Position numbers and translations under genes: made by a program
Assembly (NCBI GenBank): GCA_017540175.1
Contig: JAFYBN010000014.1
Span: 39,010-103,009, forward strand
Direction of reading: 5' to 3'
DNA length: 64,000 nucleotides
Origin: Clostridia bacterium
GTDB taxonomy: Bacteria; Bacillota; Clostridia; Oscillospirales; CAG-272
In this document: positions 8,224 through 56,931 of the stretch, one piece after another
Numbering within the stretch: position 1 is the stretch's first letter
How the letters are laid out: every line of letters begins with the position of its first letter
Notes under the pieces: generated by a model
Seen by the model: only the letters and a program-made list of their open reading frames with translations
The model's database searches: none
What the model was told of the DNA's origin: nothing

Positions 8224-9483
8224 TCAGCGCACCTGACCGCTGCCGCGGATGATATACTTGTAGGTCACGAGCTCCGCGAGCCCCATCGGGCCCCGTGCGT
8301 GGAGCTTCTGCGTGGAAATGCCCATTTCGCACCCCAGTCCGAACTCCCCGCCGTCCGTGAAGCGGGTGGACGCGTTGACGTAGACCGCCGCCGAATCCAC
8401 CTCGCGGGTGAAGAACGCGGCAGCCTCGTTGTTTTCTGTGATGATTGCCTCGCTGTGACCGGTGGAATGCTCCGCGATGTGACGCGCCGCCTCCTCCACG
8501 CCGCCCACCACATGAACGGCGAGAATGTAATCGAGGAACTCCTTATCGAAATCCCCTTCCCCGGCGGGCGTTCCCGGAATGATCGCGGCCGCTTCCGCGT
8601 CCAGTCTCAGCTCGACGGGGATGAGCCCGCGCGCCTGTCTCTCGGTGACAAGCCGCTCGCGCAGCTTCGGCAGGAAGGTCTCGGCGAGCGCGCGGTGGAC
8701 GAGCAGGACCTCCGCCGCGTTGCACACGGAGGGACGGCTCGTCTTCGCGTTTTCGACGATGGCGAGCGCCATGTCGGGATCCGCGTCCCGGTCGACATAG
8801 ATGTGGCAGATTCCCGTTCCCGTTTCAATGCAGGGGACGCGGGCGTTCTCCACGCAGGTCCGGATCAGCCCCGCCCCGCCCCGCGGGATCAACAAATCGA
8901 CCAGTCCCTCGGCGAGCATCATCTCCCGCGCGCTTTCGCGGGATGTGTCCTCGATGAAGCCGACGAGCGCGCCGGGCAGACCGGCCTTTTCGATCCCGCG
9001 CTTCAGAACCGCCGAAATCGCGGCGTTCGAGCGGAAGGCGTCGCGCCCGCCCCTCAGGATCACCGCGCTGCCCGCCTTGAGCGCGAGGGCGGCGGCGTCC
9101 GAGGTGACGTTCGGACGGCTCTCGTAAATAATGCCGATCACGCCCATCGGGACGGCGGTCTTTTCGATCGTCAGTCCGTTCGGTCGGGTGACCGACGAAA
9201 GGACGCGTCCGACGGGATCGGGCAGGGCGGCGACCTCGCGCATCCCGTCCGCCATGGAACGGATCCTCGCCTCGGTCAGCCGCAGCCGGTCGGTCATCAC
9301 GGGACCGAGCTTTTCCGCGGCGGCCTCCACGTCCTCTCGGTTCGCCGCGAGGATGGCCTCTGCGCTCTCCTCCAACTCGCGCGCGGCAAGCAGAAGGGCG
9401 CGGTTCTTTGTCTCAGATGCGCACCGCGCGAGGGAGGGCGCGGCGGTCTTTGCTTCCTTTAAGATTTCAAGCGTCGTTCTCAT
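8224..9483 (-). CDS. proA: Glutamate-5-semialdehyde dehydrogenase (gamma-glutamyl phosphate reductase)
   Basis: 419 aa. Typical ProA sequence ([30 protein letters not shown]). ATGA overlap with proB. Confidence 0.92.
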
Positions 9484-11867: not shown

Positions 11868-14063
11868 TCAGAACGAGATTTTTACGTGGATCGGTTTCCC
11901 GCCGCTCGGGAAGGTGAAGTACGAGGTCTCGCTGTCCGGCTCGTAGTCGAAGGAAAGCTCGGTCTTTACGCCGTCCGCCGTGACCGAAACGGATTTCGGG
12001 GGGCGCTTGGTCCACACCCGCGCGGCGACGGTCATCTCCGACGGGCTTCTCGAGACGAAGCTCAGGGAGCGCTGGGAGACGGCGAGCTTCTCAGCGCGTC
12101 CCGCCAGGCAGACGAGGGACGCGGGCTCGCTTTTGTCGATCCGGGCGGTATCGATCCACAGCCCGACCGAACCGGGCTGAAGCAGCGGATCCTCCACGAC
12201 GGCAAGAGCGTCGTCGAAGAGGTCGATATACGAGCCGCAGAGCTCGTCCGCCTCGTCCGTCACCTCGTCCATGCGGGCTGTGACGACGTACGCGCCGCGG
12301 CGCAGGATCAGGGATTCCTTCTTTTCAGCGCCGAGCAGGGAGAGCATGAGGTCGCGGTAGGCGTCGGACGCCTCCGGTTCCGCGGCGAGCTTTGCCGGGG
12401 CGACGGGGAGGACCGATACCCTGCCCTCTCCGACCGGATAGGTCCCCTCTGCGGCATGCCTGCCGAGCCCGAGCGCTTCGGTCAGGTGCTCGGCGGGGTT
12501 TTCGTACCGGACCGCACCGGTATTCCACCATTCGCGCACGCGGTGGAAGGGATCGCTGCCGTCGCCGACCAGAACGAGGGTACCGCCCGTGCGAACCCAG
12601 CCCGCGATGCCCTGGTGGATGTCCGGGGAGGCGGGCTTCATGAATTCATAGGACAGCACCAGCGTCTTATACGGCGCGAGATAGCCCGGGAAGCGGCGGA
12701 TATTGTCGAGCTGGATGGGACGGGCGGCAAGCCCGGCTTTGAGAAGCGGCAGGGCGATGCCGTAGAAGGACGAGAACTCGAGCGCGCCCTTCGCCTGCGC
12801 CTCCCCAAGCCCGGGACTGAATTCCTCCCGCGGGTACATGCGCTGGAACATGGCGGAATCCGCGAGCGCGACGGCGACCTCGACATTGTCCCCACCCCAC
12901 TGTACGTCCGCCTGATCCTTCATGTCGCGCAGGGCGTGCATGACGGTGAGCAGATTGGTCTTGTATTCCGGCGGGATGATCGTGCGGGTATCGGAGGAGG
13001 GTCTGAAGTCCTCTCTCTTTCCGCCCGCGGCGCGGTGCGCCTCCCATTCGGCGCGGGCCGCGTTCATGGCCTCGTCGTTTGGATGGTGCTTCCCTTTCAT
13101 GACGCGCGCGGGCCACGGGGAGACCTCGTAATCGGAGATCTCCGGGTGGAAGAGCGAGGCGACGACGGTGCGGTAGTAATTCTCGCGGTAATCGACCCAG
13201 GTGTGGCGCGGATTGTCCTCGATCGGGTCGGCGAGGTACCACATCCGCCGTCCCGTGCCGCGCACCAGCTCCTGCATGACGCCGTATTCGAGGAACGCGG
13301 TCTCGAAGGTGCGCTCCTTTCTGACGCCGCGGAACACGTTCGGCTCACGCGAGGTGCCCGTCCAGATCTGGGCGATGTAGCCGTCCACGGTGGGCAGGTC
13401 GATGAGCGCGCTCTCCGGAGAGACGATCTTCCACTGGGAGTAATTGATGAGGGAATGCGTCGGGACGTAGAAGCGCAGCAGCCGCCCGTACTTCGTCATG
13501 GCATATTCCTTCAGCTCGGAGCAGAGGCGGTCGAGTGTGCGGGTGTAGAGGTACTGCTTGAGCTTCGACGCCCGGTACTGCGCGTCGCACGAGGACTGCG
13601 GGTCGACCCAGTCCTCCTTATAGTATATCTTCCATTCGCGCTTGAATGCGTCGGAATAGCCGGTTTCGACCCAGAATTCCGGTTCCTCGAGGTGGATCGC
13701 CTCCACGCCGCAGTCGACCGCGTGCCTCAGCCCGTCCGCGAGGAAATGGGCGAAGGCGTTTGTGGGCACCATGTACGGCACGTCGACTCCGTGGGCGCGC
13801 TCCGTGCCGTCGGGATTCTTCTGCCCCTCGTCGCGGTGGTTGACGCCGTCCCAGCGTCCGAAGAGATAATCCTGATACTCTCCCCACGACACGCCGGTCA
13901 TGAGGTGGACGACGTACCCGGCTTTTTTCCACTTCTTCACGCGTTTTTTCAGATCATGGAAGCCGTAAACCATGACAAAGTCGGACTGGACGTCGAAGAT
14001 CGGCTCGAAATCCCGGCTCTCCTGCACGCCCGTGCGTTCTTCGCTTCTCGGGTATTCTTTCAT
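11868..14063 (-). CDS. Conserved hypothetical protein, glycoside-hydrolase-like barrel plus C-terminal domains (function unknown)
   Basis: Start at MKEYPRSEE (ATG 14063), forming an ATGA overlap with the upstream gene's stop. 731 aa. AIHLEEPEFW-type motif. No family recognised with confidence. Confidence 0.65.
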   Translation of the reverse strand: MKEYPRSEERTGVQESRDFEPIFDVQSDFVMVYGFHDLKKRVKKWKKAGYVVHLMTGVSWGEYQDYLFGRWDGVNHRDEGQKNPDGTERAHGVDVPYMVPTNAFAHFLADGLRHAVDCGVEAIHLEEPEFWVETGYSDAFKREWKIYYKEDWVDPQSSCDAQYRASKLKQYLYTRTLDRLCSELKEYAMTKYGRLLRFYVPTHSLINYSQWKIVSPESALIDLPTVDGYIAQIWTGTSREPNVFRGVRKERTFETAFLEYGVMQELVRGTGRRMWYLADPIEDNPRHTWVDYRENYYRTVVASLFHPEISDYEVSPWPARVMKGKHHPNDEAMNAARAEWEAHRAAGGKREDFRPSSDTRTIIPPEYKTNLLTVMHALRDMKDQADVQWGGDNVEVAVALADSAMFQRMYPREEFSPGLGEAQAKGALEFSSFYGIALPLLKAGLAARPIQLDNIRRFPGYLAPYKTLVLSYEFMKPASPDIHQGIAGWVRTGGTLVLVGDGSDPFHRVREWWNTGAVRYENPAEHLTEALGLGRHAAEGTYPVGEGRVSVLPVAPAKLAAEPEASDAYRDLMLSLLGAEKKESLILRRGAYVVTARMDEVTDEADELCGSYIDLFDDALAVVEDPLLQPGSVGLWIDTARIDKSEPASLVCLAGRAEKLAVSQRSLSFVSRSPSEMTVAARVWTKRPPKSVSVTADGVKTELSFDYEPDSETSYFTFPSGGKPIHVKISF

Positions 14064-32627: not shown

Positions 32628-35240
32628 ATGGACGAAAGAGAGTTTACCTGCGGAGATTATAGGTATACGCTTGCCGACGACGGCGGGGCGGTGATTGAGA
32701 AATACAGAGGGGAGGAAGCCGGGGAGCTGGAAATCCCGGCGGAGTTGGACGGGCACCGGGTCACGGCGATCGGCAAAGATGCGTTCAGCTGCTGCAGCAG
32801 TCTGACCGACGTGACCATTCCCGACAGCGTGAAAAAGATCGGCGATATCGCCTTCGAATTCTGCGGCTGCCTGGCTTCCGTAACCATTCCCGACAGCGTC
32901 ACGGAAATCGGCGACGGTGCGTTTGGCGGATGCGATATGCTCTCAGAGTTCCACATCTCTCCGCGTCATCCCGTATTCAGCATTATGAACAACGCGCTTG
33001 TCCACAGGGCTGAAAAACGTCTGCTCTGCGTTCCCGGCGCATTCACCGGTCATTATGATATTCCCCGCGGCATTCATATCATTGGTAACTGCGCGGTCTT
33101 CGGATGTAAAAGTCTGACCGACGTGACCATTCCCGACACCGTCACGAAAATCGGCGAAAGCGCGTTCACTCTTTGCATAAACCTCGAATCCGTTATCATT
33201 CCCGACAGCGTCACGGAAATCGGCAGCGGCGCGTTTTATGAATGCCACAGCCTGACCGACGTGACCATTCCCGCCGGCGTTAAGGAAATCGGCTACTGTG
33301 TGTTCGGAGGCTGCAGCAGCCTGACCGACGTGACCATTCCCTCCGGTGTCACTAAAATCGACGACAGCGCATTCTGTCACTGCAGCAGTCTGACCCGCGT
33401 AACCATCCCTGACAGCGTCACGAAAATCTGTAGATCCGCGTTCGCTGATTGCAACAGTCTGACTCGTTTGACCATTCCCGACAGCATTGAGGAAATCGGC
33501 ATCTTTGCATTCCAGAACTGCACCAGACTGACCGACGTGACCATTCCCGACAGTGTCACGAAAATCGGCATCTACGCGTTCGAGAACTGCATCAGACTGA
33601 CCGCTGTGACCATTCCCTCCAGTGTCACAAAAATCAACAACCACGTATTCTGCGGCTGCAAAGGTCTGACCGCCGTGACCATTCCCTCGGGCGTCACGGA
33701 AATCGGCAATGACGCGTTTTCCGGATGCAGAAGCCTGACTGATGTGACCATTCCCTCCAGCGTTAAAGAGATCGGCAATGGCGCGTTTAAAAGCTGCAGA
33801 AGCCTGACTGACGTGACCATTCCCTCCAGCGTTAAAGAGATCGGCAATGGCGCGTTCAAAAGCTGCAGCAGCCTGACTGACGTGACCATTCCGGACAGCG
33901 TCACGGTGATCGGCGGCAGCGCGTTCGAACTCTGCTCAAGCCTGACCGCCGTGACCATTCCCTCGGGCGTCACGGTGATCGGCGAAGGCGTGTTCAAAAG
34001 CTGCAGCAGCCTGACCGACGTGACCATTCCCCCGGGTGTCACGGTGATCGGCGAAGGCAAGTTCAAAAGCTGCACAAGCCTGACCGACGTGACCATTCCC
34101 TCGGGCGTCACCAAGATCGGCAACTGCGCTTTTTCCGGATGCAGAAGCCTGACCGACGTTACCATTCCCTCGGGCGTTAAAGAGATCGGCAACGGCGCGT
34201 TCGAATCCTGCGGCAGCCTGGTCTCCGTAACCATTCCCTCGGGCGTCACGGAAATCGGTGACGGCGCTTTTTCCGGATGCGATATGCTGACCGAGTTCAA
34301 CGTCTCTCCGCGTCATCCCGTATTCAGCATTATGAACAGCGCGCTTGTCCACAGGGCTGAAAAACGTCTGCTCTGCGTTCCCGGCGCATTCACCGGTCAT
34401 TATGATATTCCCCGCGGCATTTATGTCATTGGTTACGGCGCGTTTTTTGGAAACAGCAGCCTGACAGGTGTGAACATTCCCGTCGGCGTTAAAGAGATTG
34501 GCGACTGTGCGTTCGAAGGCTGCACAAGCCTGACCGATGTGACCATTTCCTCGGGCGTTACGGTGATCGGCGACTGCGCGTTCAAAAGCTGCAGCAGCCT
34601 GACCGACGTGACCATTCCCTCGGGCGTTAAAGAGATCGGCAACGGCGCGTTCGAAGGCTGCACAAGCCTGACCGACGTGACCATTCCCTCGGGCGTTAAA
34701 GAGATCGGCAACGGCGCGTTCGAAGGCTGCACAAGCCTGACCGACGTGACCATTCCCTCGGGCGTTAAAGAGATCGGCAATGGCGCGTTTGAATACTGCG
34801 ACAGCCTGGTCTCCGCAACCATTCTCTCCGGCGTCACGGAAATCGGCGACTATGCGTTCGGAGGCTGCAGCAGCCTGGTCTCCGTAACCATTCCCTCCAG
34901 CGTTAAAGAGATCGGCAATGAGGCGTTCGAATTCTGCCGCAGCCTGACCGACGTAACCATTCCCTCCAGCGTCACGGTGATCGCTCGAAACGCGTTCAAA
35001 TTCTGCAGCAGCCTGACCGCCGTGACCATTCCCTCCGGTGTCACAAAAATTGACGACTACGCATTCTGGAACTGCAGCAGCCTGACCGACGTGACCATTC
35101 CCTCCAGCGTTTATGAGATCGGCGACCACGCGTTCTTGGAATGTCCCATCCGGACCGCCGTCGTCGACAGGGGCTCTTACGCGGAGAAGTACTGTACAGA
35201 AAACAACATCCCCTTCGTCTGCGCCGATGAAAAGGCATAA
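32628..35240 (+). CDS. BspA-like leucine-rich repeat protein (LRR_5 type), no signal peptide
   Basis: Start at MDEREFTCGDYRY (ATG 32628, RBS aaggag). 870 aa. Tens of about 23-aa units of the form SLT.VTIP.SV..IG..AF..C. Two-module architecture. Confidence 0.85.
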   Translation: MDEREFTCGDYRYTLADDGGAVIEKYRGEEAGELEIPAELDGHRVTAIGKDAFSCCSSLTDVTIPDSVKKIGDIAFEFCGCLASVTIPDSVTEIGDGAFGGCDMLSEFHISPRHPVFSIMNNALVHRAEKRLLCVPGAFTGHYDIPRGIHIIGNCAVFGCKSLTDVTIPDTVTKIGESAFTLCINLESVIIPDSVTEIGSGAFYECHSLTDVTIPAGVKEIGYCVFGGCSSLTDVTIPSGVTKIDDSAFCHCSSLTRVTIPDSVTKICRSAFADCNSLTRLTIPDSIEEIGIFAFQNCTRLTDVTIPDSVTKIGIYAFENCIRLTAVTIPSSVTKINNHVFCGCKGLTAVTIPSGVTEIGNDAFSGCRSLTDVTIPSSVKEIGNGAFKSCRSLTDVTIPSSVKEIGNGAFKSCSSLTDVTIPDSVTVIGGSAFELCSSLTAVTIPSGVTVIGEGVFKSCSSLTDVTIPPGVTVIGEGKFKSCTSLTDVTIPSGVTKIGNCAFSGCRSLTDVTIPSGVKEIGNGAFESCGSLVSVTIPSGVTEIGDGAFSGCDMLTEFNVSPRHPVFSIMNSALVHRAEKRLLCVPGAFTGHYDIPRGIYVIGYGAFFGNSSLTGVNIPVGVKEIGDCAFEGCTSLTDVTISSGVTVIGDCAFKSCSSLTDVTIPSGVKEIGNGAFEGCTSLTDVTIPSGVKEIGNGAFEGCTSLTDVTIPSGVKEIGNGAFEYCDSLVSATILSGVTEIGDYAFGGCSSLVSVTIPSSVKEIGNEAFEFCRSLTDVTIPSSVTVIARNAFKFCSSLTAVTIPSGVTKIDDYAFWNCSSLTDVTIPSSVYEIGDHAFLECPIRTAVVDRGSYAEKYCTENNIPFVCADEKA
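33727..33864 (+). repeat. Intragenic 2 x 69-bp near-identical tandem repeat (LRR units)
   Basis: Period 69 nt (33727 and 33796) with 2 mismatches seen by eye. Confidence 0.8.
34598..34804 (+). repeat. Intragenic 3 x 69-bp tandem repeat (first two units identical)
   Basis: The unit cctgaccgacgtgaccattccctcgggcgttaaagagatcggcaacggcgcgttcgaaggctgcacaag starts at 34598, 34667 and 34736. Confidence 0.85.
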
Positions 35241-35282: not shown

Positions 35283-35524
35283 ATGGACGAAAGAGAATTT
35301 ACCTGCGGAGATTATAGGTATACGCTTGCCGACGACGGCGGGGCTGTGATTGAGAAATACCTCGCAGAAGACAATAAGCTGAAAATCCCGGCGGAGCCGG
35401 ACGGGCACCGGCTCACGGCGATCGGCAAGTACGCGTTTTTCGACTGCAGCCTGACCGATGTGACCATCCCCTCCAGCGTTAACAAAATCGGCGAGAGTGC
35501 GTTCTCAAGCCGCGACAACCTGTT
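35283..35524 (+). pseudogene. Truncated BspA-like LRR paralog (5' fragment only)
   Basis: 35269..35360 duplicates 32614..32705 (RBS plus the first 26 codons, 2 mismatches). LRR similarity stops near 35520, where the tRNA-associated repeat array begins. The track ORF 35283..35975 simply reads through the array. Confidence 0.65.
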
Positions 35525-35972
35525 ACACGCGCCCGTTCGATTCCCCCTTATCCGGATCAAAAAAAGAACCTTACGGTTCTTCTTTATGACCCGAGGGGGA
35601 ATCCCTCTCGCCTGCGGGCTCGGTCATGGGCGCCTACACGCGCCCGTTCGATTCCCCCTTTTTCGGATCAAAAAAAGAACCTTGCGGTTCTTTTTTATGA
35701 CCCGAGGGGGAATCGAATTCTCGCCTGCGGGCTCGGTCAGGGTGCGGGAAAACATCCCGAGTTTGCCGCAGGCATACTCAGCCGGGAATGTTTTCTTACG
35801 CGCACCCGTTCGATTTCCCCTTTTCTCGGATCAAAAAAAGAACCTAGCGGTTCTTTTTTATGACCCGAGGGGGAATCGTTCTCGCCTGCGGGCTCGGTCA
35901 TGGGCGCCTACACGCGCCCGTTCGATTCCCCCTTTTCTCGGATCAAAAAAAGAACCTTCCGGTTCTTTTTTA
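35525..35972. repeat. Composite repeat array derived from the tRNA-Glu 3' end (units of 111, 162, 112 bp plus a partial unit)
   Basis: Units start at 35525, 35636, 35798 and 35910. Three extra copies of tgacccgagggggaatc (35587, 35698, 35861). Four copies of the hairpin aaaaaaagaacc-NNNN-ggttctttttt. The invariant 21-mer tctcgcctgcgggctcggtca occurs at 35606, 35719 and 35880. Confidence 0.9.
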
Positions 35973-36044
35973 TGACCCGAGGGGGAATCGAACCCCCGTT
36001 ACTGCCGTGAAAGGGCGGTGTCTTAGCCTCTTGACCATCGGGCC
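35973..36044 (-). tRNA. tRNA-Glu (anticodon UUC)
   Basis: Minus strand GGCCCGATGGTCAAGAGGCTAAGACACCGCCCTTTCACGGCAGTAACGGGGGTTCGATTCCCCCTCGGGTCA. Cloverleaf drawn by hand. 7-bp acceptor stem, loop CTTTCAC, no encoded CCA. C28-A42 mismatch. Confidence 0.9.
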
Positions 36045-50240: not shown

Positions 50241-52103
50241 ATGAAAAGAACACGAATCATGCGGATCGCTCTGATTTTGCTCGCGGCAGCCCTGCTCGCG
50301 CTTGCGGGCTGCGGCTCTGGATCGAAGAGCGGAGAATTGATCATCAAACCCGGCGATATCAACGTTCCCTCCTACGCTTACGCGAACCGCACGGATATCA
50401 TAACGGCAGTCATACCGGACACCGTTCGGATCATCGCGGATTATGCTTTTTCGGAGTGCCGTTCGCTCACGTCCGTCACGATCCCCGATACCGTGACGAA
50501 GATCGGCGCAGGCGCTTTTTCGGGATGTACGTCCCTCGCCTCCGTCACGATCCCGGACTCCGTGACGGAGATCGGTACGGGCGCGTTTGCGGGCTGCGCC
50601 TCCCTCAATTCGATTTCAATACCGGATTCCGTCGCATCGCTCGGCATAAACGCCTTCGGGCACTGTGAAAAGCTGGAGGAGGCGAGCGTGCCCGGACACC
50701 TGACCCAAGCGGGCTCCTTTACGAAGAGCCCGAACCTGAAAACGGTCCGTGTCACGGGAAGCGTTGTCAAAGAGGGGTTTGCCCGGCAGTTCGAGCGTCT
50801 GACCGGTCCGGTGATCGTCGAAGACACCGTGACCGAAATCGAACAGCTCGCGTTTGCCGACTGCGGTTTTCTGACCTCCGTTACGATCCCGGACTCCGTG
50901 ACGGAGATCGGCACGGGCGCTTTTTCAGGGTGTACGTCCCTCGCCTCCGTCACGATCCCGGGCTCCGTGACGCGGATCGGCGAATCCGTGTTTGCGGGCT
51001 GCTCTTCCCTTTCCTCCGTCACGATCCCGGACTCCGTTGCTTCGATCGGCTCCTACGCCTTTTCCGGCTGCGCAGCGCTGACCTCCGTCGTGATCCCGGA
51101 TTCCGTCTCCGTCATCGGCACGGACGCCTTCAACGGATGCGAAGCCCTCGAAACGGTTACGCTCCCCGGCGGCGCAGCATGCCACGGTTTCGACGGTTGC
51201 CCGAATCTGCGTGAGATCCGTCTGACGGGCGACGAATTCAACAGCAGCCTTTTGACACGGCTGGCAGGTCTCCCCGCCCTCGAATCCGTCGTCCGTGTCG
51301 GCGGGACGCAGGAGGTTCAGAGCGCCGTGGTCCTGTTCGAAAAGGATTCCCTCTCCCTGACGGAGAACACCCCCGTCAGCCTCGGGTTGATCTGCTTTGG
51401 AACCCCGCGGGAGCTCACATATTCCGTGGAAGGCGATTCCGTGACCGTAGAGAGCCGAGGTGAGGACGGCGTGGAAATCACGCCCGTGCGGGACGGAGAG
51501 GCGATCGTCAGCGTGCGCGACGCGGACGGTCCGGTCGGGATCTGCACCGTCCGTGTTCTACTGCATCACGATCTGGCCGATCTGATCGCGAGCGGGGACG
51601 TCTCGGTCACCCTGAGCTGCTCCGGCATCCAGAGCGGGAAGGTTCAGATCCGGAACAATACGGACCGGAAAATCGCCTTCTATGCCCCACCCGGGACGTA
51701 TATGATGGCGGGGGGCAGCGGGTATCAGAACATGATGATCATGACGGAAATCCGGGGAACCCTCAGCGCGAACGCAAGCGAAAAAATCGACGTCGACACC
51801 TGCTGCATGAACATCCATCGGGATATTCCGACCGAGGACAAGTCCTTTTCCCTCTCGAAATCGGAGGACGAGGTTCTGTGCGCACTGGCGGCATACTGTC
51901 AGCAGAACAGCGTCTCCTATAAGGTCCGGCAGGCGGCAACATGGATCCTGACCGACGACGCTTCCTACGAGGCCTGCGGGACGCTGGTCAATGCGGGCGG
52001 AGCCCGCGTCATCACCCGGGAGAATTACAACGAGGCGGCAAGCCTGCTCGAGTCGATCCGGGAAAGGCTGAACGAAAACGGAAAATCAGCGGATGAACCG
52101 TAA
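50241..52103 (+). CDS. BspA-like LRR lipoprotein with C-terminal uncharacterised domain
   Basis: Lipobox LLALAGC. About 10 LRR_5 units (SLTSVTIPD.VT.IG.GAF.GC). A Big-like segment, then a 180-aa Cys-containing tail. Confidence 0.8.
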   Translation: MKRTRIMRIALILLAAALLALAGCGSGSKSGELIIKPGDINVPSYAYANRTDIITAVIPDTVRIIADYAFSECRSLTSVTIPDTVTKIGAGAFSGCTSLASVTIPDSVTEIGTGAFAGCASLNSISIPDSVASLGINAFGHCEKLEEASVPGHLTQAGSFTKSPNLKTVRVTGSVVKEGFARQFERLTGPVIVEDTVTEIEQLAFADCGFLTSVTIPDSVTEIGTGAFSGCTSLASVTIPGSVTRIGESVFAGCSSLSSVTIPDSVASIGSYAFSGCAALTSVVIPDSVSVIGTDAFNGCEALETVTLPGGAACHGFDGCPNLREIRLTGDEFNSSLLTRLAGLPALESVVRVGGTQEVQSAVVLFEKDSLSLTENTPVSLGLICFGTPRELTYSVEGDSVTVESRGEDGVEITPVRDGEAIVSVRDADGPVGICTVRVLLHHDLADLIASGDVSVTLSCSGIQSGKVQIRNNTDRKIAFYAPPGTYMMAGGSGYQNMMIMTEIRGTLSANASEKIDVDTCCMNIHRDIPTEDKSFSLSKSEDEVLCALAAYCQQNSVSYKVRQAATWILTDDASYEACGTLVNAGGARVITRENYNEAASLLESIRERLNENGKSADEP

Positions 52104-52935: not shown

Positions 52936-53451
52936 ATGAAATTCCTTTGGAAGGATTACGACCCCGGAGCGGACGCGTTCTGCGAGGAATGGCTCGACGC
53001 GGAGGCAACCCGCCTGACGGGGCTGGACGACGGTTGGCGGGCGTTTCACGCATACTGGACGACGGACGGCGGTCTTGCCGAAGGAAGGGATTTCTTCGAC
53101 AAGGTTATTTGCACACCGCCCTCCTCCCCTCTTTCCCCCTCCTCTTCCCTGCCCGCCCGGGGCGGTGAACCTGTCGCGGCGATCGCGTTCGGGCTGCACG
53201 GGCGTGTTCTGCACGTGATGGAACTGCTCGTCAGGCCGGATCTGCGCGGGCGCGGGATCGGGACGGCGGTGCTGCGTGAGCTGCTCGCGAACGGGAACCT
53301 TCTTAACGGCGGGAGCGCGGTCCGCGCGGAAGCGGTGATATTCCCGGACAACGCCGCGTCGATCCGGGCGTTCGAGAAAGCGGGATTCCGCTTCGATCAC
53401 GCGCACCCGGACGGGGACGCGCTGTATTACACGTATGAGGCGGAACGTTAA
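52936..53451 (+). CDS. GNAT family N-acetyltransferase
   Basis: 171 aa. V.P..RGRGIGTAVLREL acetyl-CoA binding motif. Confidence 0.75.
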   Translation: MKFLWKDYDPGADAFCEEWLDAEATRLTGLDDGWRAFHAYWTTDGGLAEGRDFFDKVICTPPSSPLSPSSSLPARGGEPVAAIAFGLHGRVLHVMELLVRPDLRGRGIGTAVLRELLANGNLLNGGSAVRAEAVIFPDNAASIRAFEKAGFRFDHAHPDGDALYYTYEAER

Positions 53452-53466
53452 AAGGACCTCTCCGTC

Positions 53467-53856
53467 ACGCGCGCCCGTTCAAGTCCCACAAACTGCAGCG
53501 AAAAAAATAAAGACAGCTTCCCGACAAAAGGATGCTGTCTTTATGGTGCGGAAGACGGGACCCCCAATTCTCGCCTGCGGGCTCGGTCATGGGGAAAACA
53601 GCCCGGTGGGCTGTTTTCTTACGCGCCCGTTCAAGTCCCACAAACTGCAGCTGAAAATAAAATACAGCCTCCCGACGATGGAAAAGCTGTACTTTATTCT
53701 TCGGAAGACGGGACCCCCAATTCTCGCCTGCGGGCTCGGTCAGGGTGCGGGAAAACATCCCACCGGGATGTTTTCTTACACGCACCCGTTCAAGTCCCAC
53801 AAACTGCAGCAAAAAATGAAAACAGCCTCCCGACGATCGAAAAGCTGTTTATCAAG
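53467..53856. repeat. Composite repeat array derived from the tRNA-Leu(GAG) 3' end (units of 154 and 157 bp plus a partial unit)
   Basis: Units start at 53467, 53621 and 53778. Extra copies of the tRNA 3' end (t[gt]cggaagacggga at 53547 and 53700). Three inverted degenerate copies (gttcaagtccc-acaaactgcagc). Three hairpins with compensating stems. The same 21-mer as in the Glu array occurs at 53569 and 53722. Confidence 0.9.
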
Positions 53857-53938
53857 TGCGGAAGACGGGACTTGAACCCGTATGGGATGCCCCACACGCC
53901 CCTCAAACGTGCGCGTCTGCCAGTTCCGCCACTTCCGC
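53857..53938 (-). tRNA. tRNA-Leu (anticodon GAG)
   Basis: Minus strand GCGGAAGTGGCGGAACTGGCAGACGCGCACGTTTGAGGGGCGTGTGGGGCATCCCATACGGGTTCAAGTCCCGTCTTCCGCA. Class II long variable arm. Loop TTGAGGG by hand folding. No encoded CCA. Confidence 0.85.
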
Positions 53939-53955: not shown

Positions 53956-53984
53956 ATTATAGCACGGCACTCCCCGTTTGTCAA
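53956..53984 (-). promoter_or_regulatory. Consensus SigA promoter of tRNA-Leu(GAG)
   Basis: Minus strand TTGACA (53984-53979), 17 nt, TATAAT (53961-53956). The tRNA starts 17 nt downstream. Confidence 0.7.
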
Positions 53985-56689: not shown

Positions 56690-56725
56690 ATTCAGGCAAC
56701 AAGGGGAAACCCGAGGGATTTGCGT

Positions 56726-56811
56726 GCCGGAGTGGCGGAATTGGCAGACGCCCGGGACTTAAAATCCCGTGATACGAAAGTATCGTACCGGTTCGAGCCC
56801 GGTGTCCGGCA
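56726..56811 (+). tRNA. tRNA-Leu (anticodon UAA)
   Basis: GCCGGAGTGGCGGAATTGGCAGACGCCCGGGACTTAAAATCCCG...ACCGGTTCGAGCCCGGTGTCCGGCA. Class II. Loop CTTAAAA. One G-G mismatch at 7:66. Confidence 0.85.
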
Positions 56812-56831
56812 TCCCTTGTTCAACTGAATAT

Positions 56832-56906
<75 letters not shown>

Positions 56907-56931
56907 GAGCAGTTGGTAAAATCCAACAAAA

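Follow-up and report, generated by a model that had tools for sequence, protein, structure and literature searches.

Genomic islands and prophages classically land in the genes for tRNAs and tmRNA, and to our knowledge the elements linked with this role have always been of kilobase size and equipped with an integrase. Integration into such a gene (tDNA) is defined by its signature of a regenerated target together with a displaced fragment (PMC4383910). A second group of described systems consists of short extragenic hairpin repeats, namely the REP (repetitive extragenic palindromic), BIME and REPIN sequences associated with RAYT (HUH Y1) transposases and the palindrome-associated transposable elements (PATEs) of IS200/IS605 type; the HUH and REP systems are covered in PMC6006769, PMC3116915 and PMC3733652. 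Here, we analysed a 64-kb stretch of DNA from a Clostridia bacterium (GenBank assembly GCA_017540175.1, contig JAFYBN010000014.1, positions 39010–103009; the window), in which 2.5 tandem copies of a small structured unit occupy positions 53466–53856, directly downstream (in the minus-strand sense) of the gene for tRNA-Leu(GAG). The unit works like a tDNA-integrating island, looks like a hairpin repeat of the REP/PATE type and qualifies as neither, and it appears not to have been described before, no description having been found in the literature by sequence string or by topic. On balance, the array is probably made up of a small, non-autonomous mobile DNA element, repeated in tandem, which regenerates its tRNA or tmRNA gene target.

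Read along the plus strand, a unit comprises a right arm (armR), a hairpin with its T-run on the minus strand, a left arm (armL), the filler CCCCAATT, the 20-mer core CTCGCCTGCGGGCTCGGTCA and a further hairpin. ArmL is a copy of the tRNA 3′ end in the same orientation as the gene, extending up to the T-stem, and armR copies the tRNA 3′ end from the T-loop onwards in inverted and partly degenerate form. The 3′ end of the unit is …GGGACTTGAA or …GGGATTCG. A sister array of three full units and one truncated unit lies behind tRNA-Glu(TTC) (35521–35972, plus strand; cores at 35607, 35720 and 35881). An earlier note on this DNA, made from the letters alone and offering no mechanism, had proposed that the two arrays have one architecture, built at the Leu locus from Leu-specific parts, and this was confirmed: the two arrays do not differ in their conserved module, and the arms on either side of it copy the cognate tRNA. 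The exact 20-mer occurs five times in the window (two Leu, three Glu), with 0.04 occurrences expected by chance. The Glu unit at 35720 and the Leu unit at 53723 share one hairpin variant, GGGTGCG/GGAAAACATCCC, with tRNA-specific arms, and the presence of this variant at two different tRNA genes is counted in favour of mobility. A covariance model built from 56 copies of the module recovered exactly the five known copies (37–73 bits) and no further credible match in the 64 kb; a match at 9264–9326 was rejected as a chance match within a coding region. The plus-strand genes for tRNA-Leu(TAA) and tRNA-Met (56725–56907), which the earlier note had suggested for comparison, lack the element by this model.

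A scan for the exact 20-mer in one genome per species found it in at least 117 loci, from approximately 93 assemblies. Four of these are chance matches in coding regions of unrelated phyla and the remainder, at least some 89 species, are Clostridia, the carriers being metagenome-assembled genomes from gut, rumen and faeces, among them members of the Christensenellales, Oscillospiraceae, Ruminococcus, Acutalibacteraceae and, in one case, the Lachnospiraceae. The element is 110–160 bp long, gene-less and hairpin-forming, and its conserved structured module of about 70 nt has the consensus N-T-CTCGCCTGCGGGCTCGGTCA, an outer stem of 7–9 bp, CTC, an inner stem (about 9 bp, 3-nt loop), TTCACTA, the strand that closes the outer stem and a final G. 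Among the matches listed, 46 of the 129 exact-core copies lie no more than 700 nt downstream of a tRNA or tmRNA gene (range 80–450 nt, most at 100–120 nt), and all 46 are antisense to that gene. The targets, again among the matches listed, are tmRNA (about 15 loci) and the tRNAs for Ser (four anticodons), Leu (three), Arg, Gln, Glu, Cys, Ala, Met and Pro, and arrays of 2–4 units are present in several genomes (L033, L055, L077, L102, L023 and L118). The design recurs behind at least 10 tRNA species and tmRNA, and what the earlier note had called a system-level feature rather than a local accident is indeed one; absence from other genomes or tRNA loci, which it had named among the grounds for reducing the arrays to a pair of local duplications, was not found. 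The units are tandem and some have common terminators, as local tandem duplications without wider meaning might, but with the module in at least 117 loci, at least some 89 species and many tRNA species that explanation is refuted and has next to no chance of being right.

The junctions of the element with its targets are precise. In nearly all loci tRNA positions 76 to 56 are reproduced exactly in the left arm, usually over 21 nt that include CCA, together with an intact true gene, so that the regenerated gene and the displaced direct 3′ fragment of the Islander definition are both present. The match to the gene is lost between positions 56 and 55, where two filler bases (CT, TT or GT) precede the core; on the tRNA strand, every insertion lies 3′ of G53-T54-T55. 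The right arm carries local tRNA positions 54–63 in inverted form at 94–100 % identity, dropping to 62 % at position 64 and to background beyond 65, and because non-palindromic loops such as TTCAAGT and TTCGATT are among those copied, the copy is truly inverted. A direct target-site duplication of a palindromic T-loop was rejected as an origin of this arm because the non-palindromic loops are clearly inverted, as was snap-back synthesis at the T-arm, since the palindrome has its axis at the loop's 5′ edge rather than its centre. The direct repeat measures 8–101 nt overall. It runs into the terminator (47–101 nt) in six loci, and in others (L045, L002 and L100, for example) it goes no further than the tRNA end and the terminators are unrelated to each other. 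In many loci (L045, L107 and L108, for example) the gene-proximal terminator differs from the distal one, which indicates that the insert brings its own terminator. Loci L107 and L108 have a common ancestral tmRNA flank (…CTTAATGAA) together with different module variants and different terminators. The anatomy of regenerated gene plus displaced fragment, the possession of own terminators and the different inserts on the common flank of L107 and L108 were all counted in favour of mobility, as were differences in copy number among related species, nested and split copies, unrelated flanks and relatives in phage genomes.

A regenerated gene and a displaced fragment (PMC4383910) in tandem arrays could also be inert scars. 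On this explanation, integrase-bearing islands or prophages integrated serially into these tRNA genes and only the ends flanking the attachment (att) sites were kept, by decay and accretion of the kind known from CIMEs (cis-mobilizable elements), which are decayed elements that keep attL and attR and form tandems by accretion (PMC5704250). The array is stable within the species, as scars would be, and in locus L118 a prophage is integrated in the same tRNA gene, beside two units. In that IMG/VR contig, a 12-nt fragment of a tRNA 3′ end, GTGGAGATGAGG, lies after the two units (11870–12180) and leads directly into phage DNA, which indicates that the prophage used the same tRNA with a different crossover point, in the T-stem. 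That phage junction is, however, not at 55|56, and independent events of decay would not all end with one 70-nt structured module and the 55|56 junction at 10 or more tRNAs and tmRNA in at least some 89 species. When the units were compared with CIMEs, att-like ends were present, gene remnants were absent and the same structured core was found at many targets. The strong pairing constraint on the hairpin and the presence of the module away from tRNA genes and inside phage genomes also argue against scars, and we regard this explanation as doubtful, with a small chance of being correct.

The pairing constraint was examined in the alignment of 56 copies. Standard pairs account for 94.8 % of the hairpin cells, compared to 69 % in shuffles and 32–44 % when the partners were slid, and 205 double-sided changes were counted (about 50 in shuffles and 25–61 in slid controls) alongside only 7 one-sided changes. 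Counted directly, 93.7 % of the pairs are Watson–Crick, 2.7 % are G.T and 3.6 % are A.C. A functional RNA read from one strand would tolerate G.U and avoid A.C. Here G.T and A.C are equally rare, with no strand asymmetry in wobble, and the stems are thus kept as true palindromes without strand bias, as would be expected of DNA that forms a hairpin or cruciform, or of palindromes corrected in a template-directed way, and not of a one-strand RNA.

The rarity of wobble on both strands and the preponderance of double-sided over one-sided changes bear directly on the alternative that the unit is a structured non-coding RNA, either a trailer co-transcribed with the tRNA or tmRNA (a mimic of the top half of a tRNA with the true 3′ end as its terminus) or an antisense RNA, in which case it would pair with the 3′ end of the tRNA. 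The strong folding of the hairpin would suit such an RNA, as would the terminators that bound each unit and the genuine tRNA 3′ end in which the unit ends on the tRNA strand, and we take the small hairpin GCC-TGCG-GGC found in relatives and the many TTCG and TACG loops to resemble stable RNA tetraloops. Yet the units contain no internal promoter and a strong terminator stands between each of them and the tRNA promoter, the acceptor-like part of the arms is unpaired in most loci, and relatives lie in both orientations relative to neighbouring genes. Nor did Rfam 15, searched with the window and ten loci at the gathering cutoffs and at E<=10, match anything other than tRNA and tmRNA, with nothing overlapping the module. 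A non-coding RNA is, consequently, unlikely in our view. A tRNA-like gene or minihelix was rejected because the acceptor part of the arms is unpaired, and a hammerhead ribozyme, suggested by CTGATGAG in some flanks, because the GAAAC element and any Rfam match are absent. Protein coding was also rejected. The open reading frames (ORFs) at 53435–53875 (plus) and 53465–53812 (minus) are mechanical ones that run over the repeats and the tRNA gene, read-through artefacts as the earlier note had it, and the spurious 110-aa gene called by the assemblies across the Leu array has no Pfam match.

If the element is mobile, as we infer from the features counted above, its parts can be assigned as T plus the 20-nt core and the two-tier hairpin, the 10-nt inverted copy of positions 54–63, a spacer, a terminator and a replacement copy of positions 56–76. 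Parsed on the tRNA strand, a segment made up of the 56–76 copy, terminator, armR complement, hairpin, core and two bases would have been inserted between T55 and C56, the old 3′ end being displaced downstream as a dead fragment and the interrupted gene being completed by the element's own 56–76 copy and terminator. Arrays would then have been built by repeated insertion or by unequal crossing-over. The Watson–Crick palindromes without strand bias suggest folded single-stranded DNA as the active form. As a single strand, armR, the terminator and the 56–76 copy fold into one long hairpin (z = -4.4), the base of which reproduces, as a duplex, the stretch of the target that runs from the T-loop into the T-stem, with an adjoining AAC that pairs with the target G53-T54-T55. 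In the active form, the inverted T-loop copy would pair with the tRNA 3′-end copy across the terminator in this way and so present a duplex image of the target site, and an enzyme encoded elsewhere, either of the HUH/Y1 type (REP/RAYT or IS200-like) or a tyrosine recombinase that reads structure, would act in trans. Among the possible mechanisms of mobility, we lean towards one that is single-stranded and structure-read, and the proposed fold presumably resembles the guide–target pairing at IS200/IS605 ends, REP/RAYT recognition and the folds of CTX-phage attP and integron attC.

A more specific proposal, put forward tentatively and with only a slight chance of proving right, is that each unit is a self-contained homing cassette guided by nucleic acid, in which the 10-nt inverted T-loop copy would serve as the guide, an enzyme supplied in trans would cut and join at 55|56 and the cassette would repair the gene. 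In the folded single strand, the guide would pair both with the target and with the replacement 3′ end of the element. Retargeting would need only a changed guide and replacement end, which would account for one module serving at least 10 targets, and an element of this kind would be the smallest known programmable, target-restoring insertion element.

Several findings weigh against a mobile element. No empty site was obtained, GNAT homologues outside the species being no more than 51 % identical with synteny lost, and a pattern designed for the empty junction of the tmRNA flank of L107 and L108 gave 0 matches in JGI metagenomes, a result that is uninformative if those taxa are absent there. 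In related phages all compared sites are filled, one of them with 290 bp of additional hairpin repeats. Within the species copy number does not vary, the Leu array being identical in 10 samples except for single-nucleotide polymorphisms at two positions. Clustering of the ORFs within 8 kb of the 117 loci revealed no recurrent transposase, integrase or reverse transcriptase, the clusters from these and 19 viral loci comprising only SmpB, an ABC transporter and phage structural genes. Pfam analysis of 20 window ORFs identified housekeeping genes only and no candidate enzyme, and an IS200 TnpA probe (tblastn) found nothing in the window or in approximately 157 fetched loci, a weak test as the loci are not whole genomes. 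Furthermore, no standard insertion chemistry accounts for the origin of the inverted T-loop copy, the way in which one module gained at least 10 target specificities is not accounted for, a double-stranded circle of 110–160 bp is hard to form, and template-directed repair can also maintain perfect palindromes that have no function.

With tDNA islands and prophages that use a tyrosine integrase, and with CIMEs, the element shares its tRNA and tmRNA targets, insertion within the 3′ part of the gene at the T-loop, the supply of a replacement 3′ end, the old 3′ end left as a direct-repeat fragment and tandem accretion. It differs from them in measuring 110–160 bp with no gene or gene remnant, in serving at least 10 target specificities with one structured module, in its inverted 10-nt target copy, in the DNA-like covariation of its hairpin and in having relatives outside tRNA genes. 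The internal tyrosine integrase of the Islander definition is absent, as the units have no ORF and no recombinase recurs within 8 kb of the 117 loci or was found among the window ORFs tested.

The likeness to REP-type repeats and PATEs lies in short, gene-less, extragenic hairpins with compensatory stem changes, mosaic clusters, the lack of own terminal inverted repeats and of a target duplication, an enzyme that, if there is one, is encoded elsewhere, and an orientation rule compatible with a single-stranded target. A conserved single-stranded tag by the hairpin may be a further likeness, the candidate for it in the main subfamily of the module being GTAG. On the tRNA strand of that subfamily, the inner hairpin is preceded on its 5′ side by GGTAGTGAA (consensus TTCACTACC), with GTAG 4 nt from the stem. 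The window copies, in contrast, belong to a second subfamily (GGAAAAC…GTTTTC TTACAC) with GTGTAAG in place of GTAG, and the window also holds short forms without the inner hairpin. Homing to a fixed nucleotide of tRNA genes and rebuilding of the target gene are not known from REPs, and none of the GTAG and CGTC REP families was reported from Firmicutes in one survey (PMC3733652). No RAYT or TnpA was found here, and a REPtron (a RAYT gene flanked by repeats) was not seen either, there being no ORF resembling a Y1 transposase in the window or in the approximately 157 fetched loci, which, as these are not whole genomes, is weak evidence. When compared with PATEs, insertion proved to be always 3′ of G53-T54-T55 in a fixed orientation and the two hairpin domains unrelated in sequence.

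A further alternative is a DNA structure of the REP/BIME type that serves the host, either by insulating or terminating highly transcribed tRNA operons or by shielding the gene from integration with disabled att-like copies. The extragenic position just after terminators and the modular mosaic with other hairpin repeats are in keeping with this role, as are the stability of the array within the species and the GTAG beside the inner hairpin of the main subfamily, REP tags being described in PMC3733652. On the other hand, only some tRNA genes carry the element, the two plus-strand genes at 56725–56907 being among those that do not, and copy number varies between related species. The element is also present in phage genomes, a prophage is still integrated beside two units in L118, and a benefit to the host leaves the precise regenerated-gene anatomy unexplained. 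We consider this alternative to be quite unlikely.

In forming arrays of bulged hairpins that are defined by structure and variable in sequence, the element also resembles folded single-stranded recombination sites, namely integron attC sites (with CALIN arrays) and the attP hairpin of CTX phage that XerCD uses. As there, one strand could yield a duplex recombination site through an imperfect inverted repeat, and growth of the array with the newest unit next to the target is conceivable. Neither an integron integrase nor a dif site was found here, the cassettes have no ORFs and a tRNA T-loop serves as target; conserved boxes are missing from the outer stem, and the junction, GTTCGAA or GTTCAAG, misfits GTTRRRY of the integron R boxes (RYYYAAC/GTTRRRY). 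With IS110/IS1111 elements and their bridge (seek) RNAs, the element shares orientation-specific, duplication-free insertion into hairpin-type targets (REP, attC for those ISs) and a target that could be set by nucleic-acid pairing. It differs in that no DEDD recombinase is nearby, the module is of 70 nt and not a two-loop RNA of 150–250 nt, and the internal loops are constant here with the flanks changing with the target. Classical MITEs (miniature inverted-repeat transposable elements) do not match because the arms vary with the target tRNA, the direct repeat ranges from 8 to 101 nt and the ends of the module are not inverted repeats of each other, nor do CRISPR arrays, as the whole 153–158 bp unit repeats and there are no unique spacers. 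A retroelement primer-binding site was rejected because in many cases the repeat continues into the genomic terminator.

A unit of about 130 bp that contains no gene follows the rule of regenerating the gene with single-nucleotide precision at 10 or more tRNA species in approximately 90 uncultured gut Clostridia, and such a unit would escape every island finder and repeat catalogue. If mobile, it would be a minimal model of target recognition and repair by nucleic-acid structure alone and would point to a candidate for a new single-strand DNA enzyme acting in trans. If not, it would be a widespread structural feature of the ends of tRNA operons in a major gut lineage. The element generates false ORF calls and assembly breaks at the loci that carry it; three of ten assemblies of this species (contigs L123, L124 and L125) break inside the Leu array or right at its start.

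Multiple copies in one genome sit in unrelated flanks and their number varies between related species; among the matches listed, RGIG7033 has seven loci and RGIG1578 four loci with six copies. Two loci (L009 and L117) have the module inside a decayed pseudo-copy of tRNA-Cys downstream of the true gene, and in three others (L010, L026 and L066) it lies in a 5′-half pseudo-copy upstream of tRNA-Leu(CAA), in the same sense as that gene. Nested inserts and split copies also exist. A small insert, CCCCCAAAGCTCGGCTRCGCTCGCTTCGGGGAACCCC, is nested inside the inner hairpin in L048, L077 and L091, and in the window Glu unit 2 has a different insert at that site (35760–35790). In L036 (4850–6740), the element is split by 1.7 kb after the 5′ strand of the outer stem and its right half adjoins tRNA-Ser; by eye only, the 1.7 kb appears to hold the truncated 3′ end of a gene for a THUMP-type RNA methyltransferase and a gene for an apparently membrane-located protein with an N-terminal helix-turn-helix-like part.

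Related modules are scattered in other intergenic sites away from tRNA genes, in both orientations relative to the neighbouring genes, and relatives with variant cores also occupy intergenic regions of bona fide phage genomes, in either orientation and with as many as three in 14 kb. BLASTN searches with the consensus gave no match in phage and plasmid collections. In six viral contigs (L133, L137, L140, L142, L151 and L157) the core is replaced by a small covarying hairpin, NNGCC-TGCG-GGCNN, found as CTCGCC/GGCGAG, CCGCC/GGCGG and TTGCC/GGCAA and located between phage structural genes, and another variant core in these contigs is TCTCGCTGCGGCTCGGTCA. In seven loci (L008, L030, L085, L101, L105, L138 and L152) the non-tRNA modules are embedded in a mosaic of other hairpin repeats, examples of which are GGCTTCCCC-TTGA-GGGGAAGC and GTCAGCC-GTA-GGCTGAC. 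At the site that it shares with its relative L138, L152 has 290 bp more of such repeats. The right-hand piece of the non-tRNA modules has on its opposite strand GCGAAGC, the motif of a very stable DNA mini-hairpin. Arrays made up of short, variable hairpins just distal to the tRNA or tmRNA element were seen in L115 (4134–4306) and L045 (6860–7050), with a constant 8-mer between the hairpins that is GTGAAGTT in L115 and is represented by GCGATAT in L045. Sub-threshold matches to Rfam Gut-1 (RF01706; 36–44 bits, cutoff 50) in these two loci belong to a different, neighbouring hairpin repeat.

Within the Leu array, all of the pieces that the earlier note had described were found, displaced by 1 nt at most. 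The additional tRNA-Leu 3′-end copies are TGCGGAAGACGGGAC (53547–53561) and TTCGGAAGACGGGAC (53700–53714). GTTCAAGTCCC is present in three identical inverted copies (starts at 53477, 53629 and 53788), each complementary at 11 of 11 positions to the true T-arm (53867–53877). The core common to the Glu array is an exact 20-mer at 53570 and 53723, or, with the preceding T, the 21-mer reported before at 53569 and 53722, and the GGAAAACA(G/T)CCC...GGG(C/A)TGTTTTC stem-loops are present as inverted repeats with folding z = -5.4 and -3.3. The direct-repeat families identified by a repeat finder are spaced at 152–159 bp, one of 42 nt in three copies (88–100 % identity) and one of 54 nt in two (93 %). 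As DNA, the hairpins of the array fold with z = -2.4 to -5.4. The three terminator hairpins and their TCCCGAC loop motif were also borne out, though the compensation claimed for their stems is limited to one position (G-C, T-A, A-T).

The array begins about 15–16 nt past the GNAT stop codon at 53451, as had been noted, though not at a unit boundary: a truncated distal unit comes first, made up of the hairpin 3′ strand CACGCGCGCCCG only (53466–53477, plus; identified from the repeat family) and joined to chromosomal DNA. It is followed by armR copy 0, TTCAAGTCCCACAAACTGCAGC (53478–53499, plus), which consists of the inverted tRNA-Leu T-loop and first T-stem bases and then a degenerate acceptor-like part, and by terminator-like hairpin A (53507–53544, minus strand, where its T-run lies; z = -3.0). 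Unit 1 contains armL1 (53544–53561, minus), a displaced tRNA fragment in which TGG, the CCA complement (53544–53546), precedes an exact copy of the tRNA-Leu 3′ end to the T-stem; the tRNA-Leu gene itself has no encoded CCA and is followed by CTT. That unit 1 carries the CCA complement although the gene does not encode CCA is another point counted for mobility. Next are the filler (53562–53569, plus), the final T of which is invariant across the family, the core (53570–53589, plus; exact match) and the hairpin (53590–53629, plus; 48 bits with the covariance model), which is present with the inner stem GAAAACAGCCC/GGGCTGTTTTC but has a degenerate outer stem.

ArmR copy 1 (53630–53651, plus), found as a direct and inverted repeat, and terminator-like hairpin B (53657–53697, minus; z = -2.4) lead into unit 2. 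Its armL2 (53700–53714, minus), identified from direct repeats, copies the tRNA-Leu 3′ end with one change, TTCGG for GTGCGG, and is followed by the filler (53715–53722, plus), the core (53723–53742, plus; exact match) and a complete two-tier hairpin (53743–53788, plus; 73 bits, E = 8e-16; z = -5.4) with outer stem GGGTGCG/CGCACCC, inner stem GGAAAACATCCC/GGGATGTTTTC and a closing G. ArmR copy 2 (53789–53810, plus), again a direct and inverted repeat, adjoins terminator C of tRNA-Leu (53820–53850, minus), which takes part in the composite hairpin of z = -4.4 formed with the tRNA 3′ end and armR. The intact, regenerated tRNA-Leu(GAG) gene (53857–53938, minus) has a perfect sigma-70 consensus promoter (TTGACA, 17 nt, TG-TATAAT; 53956–53984, minus).

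The Glu array likewise has a truncated distal end, at 35524, and the distal limit of both arrays falls at one and the same place within the hairpin, TTACAC|GCGCCCG, which suggests a breakpoint hot spot. At 35283–35975, an ORF of the leucine-rich repeat (LRR) type lacks its 3′ part from about 35520, where the Glu array starts, and then reads through the array. Large LRR_5 (BspA-like) genes flanking both tRNA loci contain long tandem repeats of 69 bp (23 residues), at 33114–35135 and 50472–51106.

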